From the IMG/VR virus record IMGVR_UViG_3300005578_000001, positions 17,813-81,812 of that record: 64,000 nucleotides of DNA. One strand, 5' to 3'. Made by a program: the position numbers and the translations under genes. Each line of letters starts with the position of its first letter. Position 1 is the stretch's first letter. Of this stretch, positions 3,430 to 10,546 are shown in pieces. Source of the DNA: a virus. The notes under the pieces were generated by a model. That model saw only the letters and a program-made list of their open reading frames with translations. It was not told where the DNA came from and did no database searches.

Positions 3430-3866
3430 CGTAAACTGTACAAGGGTGCTCCCAAAAGGTTAGCCATTGACGCGCTACCGTGGTTTGCGACTCGGCTCAA
3501 ATCCACCTTTGGTCTTTTCGCCTAGAGCCTCACAGTCTCCCATTCCGCACTACGGCCTTTATTGGTACAAACGCACCCTGTTGTTGTCGCGACAGCACGA
3601 TTCCCGATTCTCCACGTGCGCCTCCCGCCGATGGGCGCGGGCATCCCCATCCACTTACGCGATTTAATCGGCCTCTTTCAGCCGACGCTGCGGGCGTGCT
3701 AATTTTTCAATCGTTTCTAGAGCACGGGCTTACACCGTGTCACTTTCTACACCATGCCGCGATCCTGAGGCTATCGAATACATTATTCATTAACAACCAG
3801 TTTCGGGGTAGTGTCCTAATCTGAGATTCAGACTTTATTTTATAGGCCGGGGGGAGCCAATAGTGA

Positions 3867-4256
3867 TTAGGGCGGGCAGTTACACCCGTCCTCACAGGTC
3901 CGAGTCGAAGGGTCGTATTTTGCGCAGAGCCCTTCCAGGCCATCTAAATGACATGCGCAGGGCGCCGTCCCAACCCGGGCGACAAAACTCAACTGCTGAG
4001 CGGCCTTCTCGAGAGTGTAGCCCTCGAGAGTCCCGGTGGCTTGCAGCCACAAGCCTTTGGCTTTCGCGTCCGATTTCACGTGAATCGGTACGCGATGGTA
4101 GCCCTCAGGGATGGGCCGCGTGAAGTCAGCGTCAACCCTCAGCGCCCGTTCGACGACGACATTTGCTGCTGCATCGGCTGGCGTTCTTTGTAGTGTCGCG
4201 AAGGCCACGACACCGAAAACCGCCATTGCACATGTAATAAAAAGGATCTTTCTCAT
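3867..4256 (-). CDS. secreted protein with Cys-rich C-terminus
   Basis: Signal peptide MRKILFITCAMAVFGVVAFA; AAGGAG RBS; CxC and CxxxCxC tail. Confidence 0.7.
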   Translation of the reverse strand: MRKILFITCAMAVFGVVAFATLQRTPADAAANVVVERALRVDADFTRPIPEGYHRVPIHVKSDAKAKGLWLQATGTLEGYTLEKAAQQLSFVARVGTAPCACHLDGLEGLCAKYDPSTRTCEDGCNCPP

Positions 4257-4315
4257 CTTTATATCTCCTTGATTTGTGGTAGTGTTCTAATTTCCCACTT
4301 CTGCATATAGCCCCC

Positions 4316-5158
4316 TTATCGAGCGTGGAATTTATTCTCCGTGGGTGTCGGCTCGGTTGGTTGAGGTATGGTATCGGAGGGGGCGGGCGGTAACACTGGC
4401 GTCGTATTGATCCTTAACTGCTTAGGCATTTCAGCCTCCATCTCAGCTAACGCTTGCAAATGTGTATCAACTTCGGGCTTAGCTAGCTCGTAGCATTTCC
4501 ACTTCGATTTCTCTTTGCTCAAACAAACTAACTGTATGTCGCCACCAACCCCTCCGGGCGAACTTCTACTCACCTCAGATAGTGTCCAAATACATGCCAA
4601 CTGACCGTCCGTGAGAGTGGGTAAACCAGTAGGCCAAAAAATGCGTCGGATGAAAGCCAAGAACGGATCTGCTTGGGGCTGTCCGCTTCCGATTGCGACA
4701 AACGGCAAGTTCTCCGATACTTCCTCAGCGGCGCATTGATGCGAGAAAGTTACTAAGTGCGGCTCATCGTTAATCTCAAACGCCACGGCTGTTGAATGAG
4801 CGCACTGCATGATTGCTGCCTGTTGGCCTATCACACCAACGGTTGCTCCAGCGCGTTGCCAACAAAGCTCCGCATGTTTCCAAAATCGTTGCGTGAGGTC
4901 GGTCTTTGCGGCGGCAACTGATTTCCATTTCACCTGTTGACCATTCTGAGCTAGATACGCATCAATCTCCCCGCTATAGTCCTGCCCTAAACCGATCGGC
5001 CCAGACACGCCTATAACGATCCGATTGTTAGCGATATGTAGCTTAGTGACGGTATCTTGACTGATGGTGCTCTGGCCCATAGCCGTAGCGTAGGTGGCTT
5101 TCGAGTCCGCACCAAGCACGATTCCGTCAGAGCATTTAACGCCAACGATGAGAGTCAT
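4316..5158 (-). CDS. proteasome beta-subunit-like Ntn hydrolase
   Basis: M-T-LIVGVKCSDGIVLGADS (Thr1 nucleophile), AIGSG, GVGGDIQL. Confidence 0.85.
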   Translation of the reverse strand: MTLIVGVKCSDGIVLGADSKATYATAMGQSTISQDTVTKLHIANNRIVIGVSGPIGLGQDYSGEIDAYLAQNGQQVKWKSVAAAKTDLTQRFWKHAELCWQRAGATVGVIGQQAAIMQCAHSTAVAFEINDEPHLVTFSHQCAAEEVSENLPFVAIGSGQPQADPFLAFIRRIFWPTGLPTLTDGQLACIWTLSEVSRSSPGGVGGDIQLVCLSKEKSKWKCYELAKPEVDTHLQALAEMEAEMPKQLRINTTPVLPPAPSDTIPQPTEPTPTENKFHAR

Positions 5159-5604
5159 TAGCCAACAAAAACGCTCTTAGCTTTATATTGTGGGTATGCC
5201 CTATAGATAGCGGACAGCAGTTGTGCAAACGAGAGGCTTTGTACCCATTTGACGACCTTCGTAATGTAAGCCGACATCCGCTCACTAATTTCAGTCTTGC
5301 GTACATACTCCGCAAGGTCTTGACCCGCGGACGTGATCGTATAATATGCCCAGCCCTTATTAGCCACCTGAACGCTCTGAACAAGGTCGCTGTAAATCAG
5401 AGATTCGGCGTCTTTGTACACGCGCGGATCAAATGGTCCATAATTGTAAGGAACAAACTCGTAGTAGTTATCGCCAACTTCATCCGGTAGATTCTGACCT
5501 ATAAGGAATAAAACCTTTTGAAGCTGAACAGGCGATAACCCGGCTGGTCCAGCCTGATAAATCACTAATAGCGGCCAATGTCTACGATCCATTACACCCT
5601 CCAA
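5158..5604 (-). CDS. Panacea/SocA/YwgA-like (DUF4065-type) wHTH protein
   Basis: LSPVQLQKVLFL...YEFVPYNYGPFDPRVY signature; coupled to the protease gene by TAATG overlap. Confidence 0.75.
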   Translation of the reverse strand: MEGVMDRRHWPLLVIYQAGPAGLSPVQLQKVLFLIGQNLPDEVGDNYYEFVPYNYGPFDPRVYKDAESLIYSDLVQSVQVANKGWAYYTITSAGQDLAEYVRKTEISERMSAYITKVVKWVQSLSFAQLLSAIYRAYPQYKAKSVFVG

Positions 5605-5831
5605 TAGTTAGAGTACCGCGTGGATTTTTAAAAGTTAAGGCCGCACGCGCGGTTACGTGGCGTTGCAGGGCTGGAAAATCAGACGGAGGTATAAACAGTG
5701 TTTAAATGGCAACTGTGACCTACCCTATCATTGATACCGTCGAACAGCAAGAAAATAATTTCGTAGTACGAAAATAGTTGTAGACAGATTATGGTTTCCG
5801 TAGTACAGTATTTCCACTGGAGACGGAAACA

Positions 5832-6671
5832 ATGTCTAACAACCACCTAAGCAAAGACAAACAGATTGCAGTTACGGAAGCACTAGCCGAAGGTAATTCG
5901 ATCCGGTCGATAGAGAGAATGACCGGAATTCATCGTGACACGATCATGCGCTTAGGTGTTCGCGTTGGTCAAGGCTGTGCTGAATTGTTGGATCAGAAGA
6001 TGCGCAACCTCGATTGCAACCGCATCGAGCTGGATGAAATTTGGGGATTTATTGGCAAGAAGGTCCGTCACCTGCGTGAAGATGACGATCCGACATTTGG
6101 CGACGTTTGGACCTACTGCGCGATTGATGCTGAGACTAAGCTTGTGCCTTCGTACAAGGTTGCCAGCAAGCGCAATCTACCCAACACAATCGATTTTATC
6201 AGCGACCTTAAAGCGCGGATGAACAATCGCATTCAGATCTCGTCAGATGCGATGCTCTCTTATGAAGAAGCTATCGACACGGTGTTCGGGATGGATGTCG
6301 ATTATGCGCAGATTGTAAAAACCTACGGCACAGACGAAAGTAAGTACAGCACACCAGAACGTAAGTATTCCCCTTCGCGTATCACGGACAGTGAGAAGAT
6401 CTGGAAGATGGGCCAGCCCGAAGCGCGCTACGTTTCAACTAGCTACGTTGAGCGCTTGAATGCGTCTACCCGCTTGCACGTTAAGCGTCTCAATCGTCTT
6501 ACGCTCGCGTTCAGTAAGAAGCTGGAAAACTTCGAGGCTGCGGTTTCCCTTCACTTCGCGGCGTACAATTTCGTGCGCACTCACAGCGCGGTGAAGATGA
6601 CGCCCGCGATGGCAGCCGGAGTCACGCGTAACTTCTGGTCCTATGGCGATCTAGTCGAGGCAGTTCTATGA
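5832..6671 (+). CDS. IS1-family DDE transposase
   Basis: N-terminal HTH (GNSIRSIERMTGIHRDTI), IELDEIWGFIGKK, ISSD, TSYVERLN..R..RLNRLTLAFSKK. Confidence 0.88.
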   Translation: MSNNHLSKDKQIAVTEALAEGNSIRSIERMTGIHRDTIMRLGVRVGQGCAELLDQKMRNLDCNRIELDEIWGFIGKKVRHLREDDDPTFGDVWTYCAIDAETKLVPSYKVASKRNLPNTIDFISDLKARMNNRIQISSDAMLSYEEAIDTVFGMDVDYAQIVKTYGTDESKYSTPERKYSPSRITDSEKIWKMGQPEARYVSTSYVERLNASTRLHVKRLNRLTLAFSKKLENFEAAVSLHFAAYNFVRTHSAVKMTPAMAAGVTRNFWSYGDLVEAVL

Positions 6672-9645: not shown

Positions 9646-9680
9646 TTCTTGCTCCGCGCCGTAGTTGGGCAAGAAGACTG

Positions 9681-9719
9681 AAAGGCCGGGAATGCCCAGA
9701 TCCCGGCCTTTTGGTTTTT
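9681..9719 (+). terminator. intrinsic terminator
   Basis: AAAGGCCGGGA..TCCCGGCCTTTT hairpin plus T tract. Confidence 0.75.
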
Positions 9720-9809
9720 GTGATGTTGGTTTACTGTTTAGGCACCTTGTAGGCGGCATGGCCCCACAAACCAGCCGCCCGTCCTTCATCGCTTAATGGA
9801 GCACGCTTT

Positions 9810-10016
9810 ATGGCACGCATGTTAACGAGTCTTCAATGGTGGGAGATTACCGGCTACTGTGTTGCGCTAGGTCTAGTTGTTTTAGCTGCTTTAATGGATA
9901 AGATCGGCGGGCCGGACTCTGCGTCGGAACGCCTAAGCGGCATAATTGCGACTCTCGGCATCCTCGGATTCCTTGTAGTCTTCACAATCGGTTTTGTGCT
10001 CAGGTTTGTGATCTAG
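9810..10016 (+). CDS. small two-TM membrane protein
   Basis: Two hydrophobic helices; GGAG RBS. Confidence 0.6.
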   Translation: MARMLTSLQWWEITGYCVALGLVVLAALMDKIGGPDSASERLSGIIATLGILGFLVVFTIGFVLRFVI

Positions 10017-10051
10017 GGACAAGGGCCGTGCCAGATTTTCAATTCCAGATT

Positions 10052-10546
10052 TCAGATTAGGACACTACCCAGTTTCGGTTTCGGCAGTGACTTCACCGGG
10101 GCGAGGTCAATAGCCAGTTCTTTCTTTGCGTCCCGGCCCGCTTGACTGAGCTTAGCAGCTACTCCCATAGCATGATCGTATCGAGCCTGTCCGATGCCAT
10201 CTAAGCGCTCACGTGGCACAATAGCCAAGCGCCGGAACGCGCGTCCTGTATGCCGGATTCCCTGTTTGATGTTTCGCTCCGACTCTTTCAGGCGATCAGC
10301 CGGATTGAGAAACTTCAATCCGATTCCATGGATCCACTCACTGTCGATGTCGCGATCGTTGCGGAGTCTGCGCCGCCATGCGTTCACCACACCGTAATAG
10401 CGATTGGTTTTAGCGGGGATTTTTATTAACGCTTCGAACTCTGAGTGACGGATCACTTGATCTTCATCCGGCGTGGGAAATGCCTCTTCCAGCTTGCGCA
10501 CGTCGGGGCCGTAGGGAATGCCATTTACTAACTGAGCAGGTTTCAT
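10052..10546 (-). CDS. accessory protein of the Cas7-like locus; C-terminus altered by IS insertion
   Basis: GGAG RBS; last residues GSVLI are read from the IS IR; the pre-insertion end (PKLVVNE*) lies at 3783-3806. Confidence 0.75.
   Translation of the reverse strand: MKPAQLVNGIPYGPDVRKLEEAFPTPDEDQVIRHSEFEALIKIPAKTNRYYGVVNAWRRRLRNDRDIDSEWIHGIGLKFLNPADRLKESERNIKQGIRHTGRAFRRLAIVPRERLDGIGQARYDHAMGVAAKLSQAGRDAKKELAIDLAPVKSLPKPKLGSVLI

Follow-up and report, generated by a model that had tools for sequence, protein, structure and literature searches.

A probable cargo-carrying insertion sequence from a distant IS1 branch, with an allo-tRNA-like RNA in its backbone, inserted in a tailed-phage genome

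The stretch of DNA analysed in this work (the window, 64,000 nucleotides) corresponds to bases 17813-81812 of the IMG/VR virus record IMGVR_UViG_3300005578_000001, an 81,812-bp soil virus genome with direct terminal repeats that is rated complete. An element of 6,263 bp (3807-10069 of the window) is located in this genome between inverted repeats and a short target-site duplication (TSD). It includes a transposase gene followed by two small genes (C1 and C2), a gene for a tRNA-like RNA, a predicted toxin-antitoxin-chaperone (TAC) operon, a protease gene with its coupled partner, regulators of the XRE type with a helix-turn-helix (HTH) motif, and several other small genes. A search with PHROGs profiles has revealed terminase large subunit, portal (2e-85), scaffold, major head (2e-87), sliding clamp, exonuclease and thymidylate synthase genes, and therefore the host DNA is assigned to a tailed phage. 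The location of the element in a phage, as stated in an initial annotation made from the letters of the sequence, is borne out by these structural genes and by the terminal repeats.

The inverted repeat GGTAGTGTCCTAATCTGA is present at 3807-3824 on the plus strand and, as its reverse complement, at 10052-10069, and it is perfect over 18 nt. The somewhat longer arms 3806-3827 and 10049-10070 are 95% identical over 22 nt and constitute the top inverted repeat of the region. Directly outside both repeats lies the 9-bp direct repeat CAGTTTCGG, with a left copy at 3798-3806 and an identical right copy at 10070-10078. Both the repeats and the duplication had been recognised initially, and the interval given for them, 3798-10078, comprises exactly the element and the two copies of the duplication. 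IS1 elements have GGnnnTG ends and duplications of 8-9 bp (ISfinder-derived table, PMC10425158); both ends of this element read GGTAGTG, and its 9-bp duplication fits the listed length. The left end (left inverted repeat, IRL; 3807-3845, plus strand) consists of the 18-bp perfect repeat and a conserved subterminal stretch, and is 87-97% identical to the IRL of three relatives (L015, L016 and L025), and the right end (right inverted repeat, IRR; 10014-10069, minus strand) also combines the 18-bp perfect repeat with a conserved subterminal stretch.

When up to 3 mismatches are allowed, three occurrences of a 17-mer characteristic of the family are counted in the 64-kb window, whereas 0.08 occurrences are expected from shuffled sequences. 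The occurrence that is not at a terminus is a solo IRL-like sequence (GGTAGTGTTCTAATTTC, 4278-4294, plus strand) located between the gene for a 129-aa protein and the protease gene, with 2 mismatches to the 17-mer and the same orientation as IRL. Extra end-like sequences are also found inside the relatives L013, L014, L016 and L043, and internal sequences of this kind may be scars of cargo addition. They are the basis for proposing a nested or accreted composite, in which an older element starting at 4278 would have gained the outer left end and the 129-aa gene from a second family member, the chimera now moving from its outer ends. The sequence at 4278 is closer to the family consensus (…AATTT…) than to the element's own ends, in favour of such a history. 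However, no duplication pairs 4278 with 10069 (TTGATTTGT versus CAGTTTCGG), and the similarity to the ends ceases after 16 nt. A composite origin is considered possible, though rather unlikely, and it is compatible with a complete element that moves as one unit, because it concerns only how cargo was added.

The transposase gene (5832-6671, plus strand) is a single open reading frame (ORF) of 279 codons, and a promoter-like site (5731-5759, plus strand; 10/12, a consensus match only) is found upstream of it, at the start of a conserved backbone block. The product matches the IS1-family DDE transposase domain PF03400 with 28.0 bits (cut-off 24.1), and its best NCBIfam transposase model is transpos_IS1 (43.8 bits). 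Assignment to the IS6 or IS481 families was rejected because their NCBIfam scores were weaker than that of IS1. Residues D68, D99 and E207 are invariant in an alignment of 13 sequences. There are about 8,000 transposase homologues, the close ones being nearly all 277-279 aa long and the nearest 93-94% identical, and PGAP gives the annotation 'IS1 family transposase' to plasmid-borne relatives that are 41% identical. The description of a single, central transposase of the IS1 family agrees with these data, with one transposase gene in the element and PF03400 above its cut-off. IS1 is commonly taught as a minimal insertion sequence, and the 'ISMhu11' subgroup of IS1 in ISfinder reaches 4.6 kb and carries passenger genes. 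A literature search for 'ISMhu11' yielded no paper.

The right end of the element lies in a phage gene (10052-10546, minus strand). This ORF, read from 10546 to 10052, stops inside the right end (...KSLPKPKL|GSVLI*), so that in its present form it codes for 164 aa, with the terminal VVNE changed to GSVLI and the stop codon supplied by IRR. When the flanks are joined over one copy of the duplication, the minus strand reads CTG GTT GTT AAT GAA TAA (...LPKPKLVVNE*), which places the insertion point in the last five codons of a 163-aa phage gene; the predicted empty-site DNA across the joined flanks is ...AAACTGGTTGTTAATGAATAA. A protein search with the target gene retrieved 77 homologues. One of them (P0121), of 163 aa and encoded on a separate 1,616-nt JGI/ENA contig, is 99% identical (one substitution) and ends ...KSLPKPKLVVNE, exactly as predicted, and this C-terminal end is common to five of the eight relatives listed (75-87% identical to P0121). 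In the family of the target protein, residues L159, V160 and N162 hardly vary, and consequently the insertion, which adds 7.7% to the phage genome, has rewritten the conserved C-terminus of one gene.

A related phage contig (L124, IMGVR_UViG_3300049061_000067) encodes an 88% identical protein from an uninterrupted gene (...KPKLVSNG*), and in this contig the homologues of the two window flanks are separated by 1.3 kb that contains no transposon sequence. This relative came from the alignment-based search; the earlier search of IMG/VR with the target protein alone gave no relative, and an exact search of IMG/VR with 36 nt of the right flank gave no match. By protein and by synteny, and not as near-identical DNA, these comparisons show the empty site whose existence the initial annotation had asked for. 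The element moved into this site as one unit. The 99%-identical uninterrupted allele, the perfect ends and the intact transposase argue for a recent insertion, in line with the recent movement that had been proposed.

The record is a metagenome assembly, and the only sequencing run that holds the full record may be its own source, which would leave room for a chimera of a phage contig and a bacterial transposon joined through a repeat. Such an artefact is extremely improbable, since the junctions are precise and carry the 9-bp duplication, removal of the element restores the conserved C-terminus letter for letter, and an independent Logan assembly contains one contig of 81,718 nt over the whole stretch with a uniform depth of 29.7. 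Two runs (X1 and X2) were compared with the window. At 10741-10951, a non-coding region upstream of the 164-aa gene, a contig of a related phage in run X2 has 22 other letters for 209 nt. A separate contig of 31 nt in run X1 (depth 4) matches the right end of the element only (window 10041-10069) and suggests that more copies of this IS1-type family are present in the same sample.

An alignment-driven scan of bacterial and archaeal assemblies, taken as one genome per species, has produced 546 stretches confirmed by tblastn, 80 of which were kept, and 26 IMG/VR contigs were added. The kept stretches are mostly from Acidobacteriota (Pyrinomonadaceae, Blastocatellia and Terriglobia), with single records from Verrucomicrobiia, Nitrospiria, Methylomirabilia and Thaumarchaeota. 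The 14-mer GGTAGTGTCCTAAT is found inverted on both sides of the homologous transposase gene in most of the 106 loci. Exact duplications were detected for 64 elements, this one included (8 bp in 54 of them and 9 bp in 10, the latter mostly in the closest branch); five of the 64 are from virus contigs and the majority from genomes of Acidobacteriota. Next to the 18-bp repeat, each end has its own conserved subterminal sequence, the left one differing from the right one, as expected for functional ends. The linkage of the repeats to the transposase elsewhere, on which the initial annotation had made its proposal depend, was checked and holds, because the same ends flank related transposases in 63 other elements. 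The 64 elements are 2,017-7,856 bp long (median about 2.9 kb), and the element described here is the third largest. Its size had been regarded as exceptional on the grounds that IS1 elements are shorter than 1 kb, but with all 64 relatives between 2.0 and 7.9 kb a large size is normal in this family and that view does not stand.

The branches of the family differ in their accessory genes. In the Terriglobia branch, the transposase gene is directly preceded by a conserved ORF of some 300 aa that matches no Pfam family (L020-L085; for example L028:9041-10822 and L034:4240-5160), and in at least 20 elements this ORF is fused in frame to the transposase, giving products of 540-660 aa. This ORF may belong to a long isoform of the transposase or may be a separate backbone gene. 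In three IMG/VR loci (L087, L088 and L105), which represent a more remote branch carried by viruses, with a transposase about 50% identical, the transposase gene ends 18-24 bp from the right end and all other genes lie to its left, the homologues of C1 and C2 being on the opposite strand, and thus the order of the backbone is rearranged.

The comparison by blastn with ten close relatives revealed five conserved blocks in the element: the left end (3807-3845), a central block (5750-7261) with the promoter region, transposase, C1, C2 and tRNA-like RNA, a block with an XRE gene and a 120-aa gene (8755-9384) that is shared with L015 and L016 only (77-79% identical), a hairpin segment (9643-9717, 91-92% identical) and the right end (10014-10069). 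Unique to this copy are a left slot (3846-5749), a right slot (7262-8754) and two smaller stretches (9385-9642 and 9718-10013). Clustering of the proteins of the 64 elements singled out three recurrent backbone genes, those of the transposase, C1 and C2. In the central block, C1 (105 aa, 6668-6985, plus strand) overlaps the transposase stop codon with its start (ATGA) and is present in 52 of the 64 elements. Its homologues are mainly from Acidobacteriota, and an AF2 model (pLDDT 88.7) predicts a helix, a four-stranded sheet and a second helix. The search for relatives of C1 gave no convincing one: the best Foldseek match against the PDB had an E-value of 0.3, the best VIA-align match a Z-score of 4.7 (a generic cystatin-like alpha+beta fold), no Pfam family was matched and only unnamed clusters were obtained in the ESM Atlas. 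C2 (59 aa, 6957-7136, plus strand), found in 42 of the 64 elements, is a ribbon-helix-helix (RHH) protein of the NikA/RelB-like type (PF21983, 27.7 bits with a cut-off of 27; NCBIfam RelB, 24 bits).

Three XRE-type HTH proteins are encoded in the element, one of them being the antitoxin of the TAC operon. The second, of 91 aa (8734-9009, minus strand; 77-79% DNA identity to L015 and L016), and a 120-aa protein (9036-9398, plus strand), which falls in protein cluster C8 with L016, form a backbone of the sub-branch. The third has 81 aa (9400-9645, plus strand) and belongs to protein cluster C5. The conserved 75-nt segment at 9643-9717 (plus strand) consists of a GC-rich hairpin followed by a T-run; it is 91-92% identical to L015 and L016, where the genes around it are only 77-79% identical or unrelated, and it could serve as a conserved terminator or else act as a regulatory RNA. 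Near the right end, the cargo includes a hydrophobic (membrane) protein of 68 aa (9810-10016, plus strand). This partition retains the protease pair and the TAC operon, one on each side of the transposase, as cargo in the sense of the initial annotation, and transfers the XRE gene at 8734-9009, common to L015 and L016, to the backbone.

Passengers of at least 80 aa amount to 125 proteins in the whole family, most of them without a Pfam match. Seven contain an XRE-type HTH and, beyond HTH, no Pfam family occurs in more than two of the 125; single members correspond to GmrSD/HEC-06, DNA methylases, PIN, STAND NTPase, DUF3800 and IstB. For functional screens, the slots offer a ready collection of mobile genes that are probably related to conflict.

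The right slot contains the TAC operon. Its toxin gene (8244-8672, minus strand) encodes a HigB/Gp49-family protein (PF05973, 75.3 bits, cut-off 23.9). A promoter-like site for the operon (8620-8647, minus strand; TTGACT-16-TATAAT, 11/12, a consensus match only) lies inside the long HigB ORF, so that the true HigB start is probably at 8609 or 8621. The HigA-like HTH antitoxin (7822-8280, minus strand; PF01381, 45.5 bits at residues 45-94) has a probable ATG at 8247 that overlaps the HigB stop codon (ATGA), and about 55 additional residues at its C-terminus, many of them aromatic. The third gene (7243-7821, minus strand) abuts the HigA stop codon and codes for a 192-aa protein with weak SecB matches: three weak NCBIfam SecB models, SecB proteins as the best PDB sequence hits (E 0.08, residues 15-144), the PADLOC model PD-T4-9_C (E 0.004) and, in the ESM Atlas (features 0.95), 21 of 30 hits in SecB clusters with a TM of 0.71. 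These weak but concordant lines, all of which miss the curated cut-offs, support a SecB-like chaperone. The operon had been called TAC from the start, and a HigB of 75 bits, the HigA-like HTH protein and the SecB-like protein (19 bits in Pfam, with ESM Atlas support) are consistent with that name.

The left slot includes a gene for a 280-aa protease of the proteasome/HslV-like type with N-terminal threonine (4316-5158, minus strand; PF00227, 39.6 bits, cut-off 22.4). Its first residues are Met-Thr, and in the alignment Thr2 takes the position of Thr1 of mature beta subunits. When 26 of its 382 homologues were compared, T2 was nearly invariant and D18 and K39 were invariant; these residues are the predicted catalytic threonine and its Asp/Lys partners. 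The gene of a 148-aa partner (5158-5604, minus strand) overlaps the protease start with its stop codon and is translationally coupled to it, in agreement with the protease pair of the initial annotation. The left-most gene (3867-4256, minus strand) encodes a 129-aa protein without family match, with a hydrophobic signal-like segment at the N-terminus and a Cys-rich C-terminus. Homology between the cargo of relative L007 and the 129-aa, 148-aa and SecB-like genes of this element was tested and rejected.

The 148-aa protein matches the PADLOC defence-candidate model PDC-M19A (3e-15), and the identically organised HigBAC system (HigB-HigA-SecB) makes E. coli immune to phage: the chaperone is contested between the antitoxin tail and a tail protein of the phage, and the toxin is thereby freed (bioRxiv 10.1101/2024.02.24.581848). 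The 'defence-type' character ascribed to the cargo is a deduction from homology, to which PADLOC adds only weak or partial matches. The TAC operon and the protease pair could instead be addiction or stabilisation modules that maintain the transposon or the prophage, and not anti-phage defence. Toxin-antitoxin modules are classic stabilisers of mobile DNA, the cargo of the family is very heterogeneous, as its Pfam composition indicates, PADLOC found no strong match for this element, and toxin-antitoxin genes around allo-tRNAs have been noted without a defence role (Mukai et al., PMC5389517). We judge this alternative somewhat less likely than not, in view of the E. coli immunity and the PDC-M19A match, and the two roles are not mutually exclusive.

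The gene for the tRNA-like RNA (7154-7241, minus strand) is of the 9/3 allo-tRNA-like type, and matches the Rfam tRNA-Sec model with 29.7 bits (below the gathering score of 47) over model positions 1-91. ARAGORN reported no tRNA in the whole window, as expected for the 9/3 shape. In the RNA, an acceptor stem of 9 bp (GGAGGACAU/AUGUCCUCC) is combined with a D arm whose loop has 4 nt, the hairpin UGGA-AUUUACA-UCCA, a long variable arm and the T arm GGG-UUCGAUU-CCC; the loop AUUUACA places UUA at the anticodon position, with U33 and C37, and G is the discriminator. The long variable arm and the tRNA-Sec-like D arm are seen in the Rfam alignment, and the same arms appear in constrained folds. A covariance model detected the gene in 13 loci of the closest branch, including L007-L011, L013-L017, L019 and L025. 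In an alignment of 12 sequences, 99.3% of the cells of the 9/3 stems are paired and 7 of the 12 pairs have changed on both sides, values that none of 500 shuffles reach, and slid controls are 45-68% paired. This covariation indicates a maintained structured RNA of the 9/3 allo-tRNA type.

The tRNA-like gene is convergent to C2 and lies 12-19 nt from the C2 stop codon in the six elements measured, this one included. It had initially been listed as cargo, and this has to be revised: the RNA is a backbone part of the Pyrinomonadaceae/Blastocatellia branch, and it is absent from the elements of the Terriglobia branch. In this copy, a single nucleotide separates the SecB-like stop codon from the tRNA-like gene at its 5' end. 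Likewise, in L007 only 1-2 nt lie between the end of an unrelated cargo ORF (L007:11422-11736, minus strand) and the 5' end of the tRNA-like RNA (L007:11328-11420, minus strand), and cargo operons may be directly fused to the RNA.

Allo-tRNAs with the 9/3 structure have been described in Acidobacteria, some of them for UAA, near toxin-antitoxin genes and overlapping a 'transposon-related protein' (Mukai et al., Nucleic Acids Res 2017, PMC5389517); no transposon family is named by these authors for them (PMC5389517; review PMC7609411). The 9/3 architecture with covariation, the long variable arm, the G discriminator and UUA at the anticodon position would suit a functional ochre suppressor, a tRNA that carries serine, decodes UAA and is supplied by the element to the host or to the phage, and together with natural UAA 9/3 allo-tRNAs, 9/3 scaffolds active in E. 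coli after a change to CUA have been reported (PMC5389517). However, the arm required for decoding (a stem of 5-6 bp and a purine at position 37) was not found, as the anticodon stem has 4 bp in this copy and 2-3 bp in homologues, and position 37 is C. In constrained folds, this copy and several of the 13 homologues (e.g. L010, L011, L015 and L019) form a five-way junction, and these features make routine decoding unlikely. In addition, the Rfam score is below the cut-off, ARAGORN rejects the gene, in homologues the conserved UACA motif of the loop is out of register with the anticodon, and the phage ORFs read normally under table 11. A group of destabilised allo-tRNAs with five-stem junctions is inactive in translation (PMC5389517). 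Taken together, a functional suppressor tRNA appears improbable. Among the sequencing runs searched, no RNA run contains the sequence.

As a tentative proposal, the allo-tRNA-like RNA could be a working part of the transposon, either as a boundary processed by RNase P and RNase Z that would end the cargo transcripts and shield the convergent transposase genes from antisense transcription, or as a regulator of transposase or cargo expression. If this were true, at least some of the acidobacterial allo-tRNAs would have their natural home and vehicle in this IS1 lineage, which would also be a general shuttle of swappable toxin and defence modules into bacteria and their phages.

Considered together, the boundaries, the transposase, the empty site and the family of relatives lead to the interpretation that the segment 3807-10069 is a complete, probably still active, cargo-carrying IS1-family insertion sequence, that is, a transporter insertion sequence (tIS), to which we assign a probability of about 0.9. 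Several observations weigh against it. The NCBIfam IS1 score of the transposase is far below the equivalog cut-off of 100, which places the enzyme in a remote branch of IS1. In the phage genome, transposase and end sequence are found only once, and with one copy only the movement is deduced from structure and from the empty site. By the end-like sequence at 4278, the left part of the element may be a later accretion. With respect to the cargo, the 192-aa protein reaches 19.2 bits with Pfam SecB (cut-off 26), the 148-aa protein reaches 14.4 bits with PF13274 (Panacea; E 0.073, cut-off 25.7, model positions 1-104 of 113), and no strong match to a named defence system was obtained with PADLOC on the genes of the element. 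Finally, the contigs of runs X1 and X2, compared over 2500-11500, contain no joint that skips the element; X1 is possibly the source assembly and X2 holds only short pieces of a relative, none of them crossing the junction, and the result is uninformative either way.

In the mechanism proposed for this tIS, the transposase would recognise the GGTAGTGTCCTAATCTGA terminal repeats and insert the 6,263-bp unit through a staggered 9-bp cut, with the chemistry of the IS1 family, and C2, as an RHH protein, would act as the repressor of the element. New cargo may enter the slots through recombination or end-capture, as the solo end at 4278 hints. The HigB-HigA-SecB operon is a candidate chaperone-gated toxin switch, either excluding competing phages or stabilising its carrier; by analogy with E. 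coli HigBAC, the chaperone would keep HigA folded until a competing client titrates it, and the HigB mRNase would then be freed. The protease pair may be a second toxin-like module. The insertion illustrates how phage genomes can acquire toxin-antitoxin-chaperone and protease modules, and the IS1 branch to which it belongs is abundant, with accessory proteins, in one clade a tRNA-shaped RNA, and mostly uncharacterised slot genes that vary from element to element.

The comparison with known systems places the element next to several of them. It shares with E. coli IS1 the PF03400 DDE transposase, the D..D..E residues, the E-R-x-N...R-L...F-S-K tail, the GGnnnTG ends and the 8-9-bp duplication. 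In contrast, classical IS1 elements are of 740-1,180 bp and have two frames, insA and insB', with a -1 frameshift, whereas this element has one 279-aa ORF in 6.26 kb, a layout compatible only with the single-ORF subgroups of IS1 that carry passengers, and it is further distinguished by its pair of fixed accessory proteins, the tRNA-like RNA and the two slots for cargo. The M. tuberculosis TAC systems (PMC5105189, PMC6377645) and HigBAC of E. coli have the same order of a toxin, an HTH antitoxin with an aromatic-rich extension and a chaperone, SecB-like in the present operon by weak matches, in reading frames that overlap or abut; the present predicted operon differs in a chaperone below the SecB cut-offs and in its location in a transposon in a phage, ending at a tRNA-like gene. 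The protease pair resembles the Panacea (SocA/DUF4065) pairs (PMC8832971) in that a small protein is translationally coupled to a potentially harmful enzyme, but the match of the 148-aa protein is below the cut-off and its partner is a proteasome-like protease.

The tRNA-like RNA shares with the (9/3) allo-tRNAs (PMC5389517, PMC7609411) the 9-bp acceptor and 3-bp T stems, the long variable arm, the tRNA-Sec-like D arm and UUA, as well as the Acidobacteriota setting, the neighbouring toxin-antitoxin genes and the transposon-related protein, and with their destabilised, translation-inactive group (Mukai et al.) the weak anticodon stem and, in this copy, C37; it differs in being a fixed part of an IS1-family backbone. 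The concept of transporter IS, the allo-tRNAs and their loose link to transposons and toxin-antitoxin genes are already published, and in the searchable literature no description was found of this IS1 branch with a fixed C1/RHH/tRNA-like backbone and slots. As in other tIS (concept cited in PMC9330008), a single transposase with its own terminal repeats moves together with passenger genes, and the duplication lies outside the full 6.26-kb unit, an empty-site allele exists and the cargo differs between homologous elements. The difference is that in this family the passengers sit in defined slots flanking a backbone of several genes and are exchanged between otherwise homologous elements.

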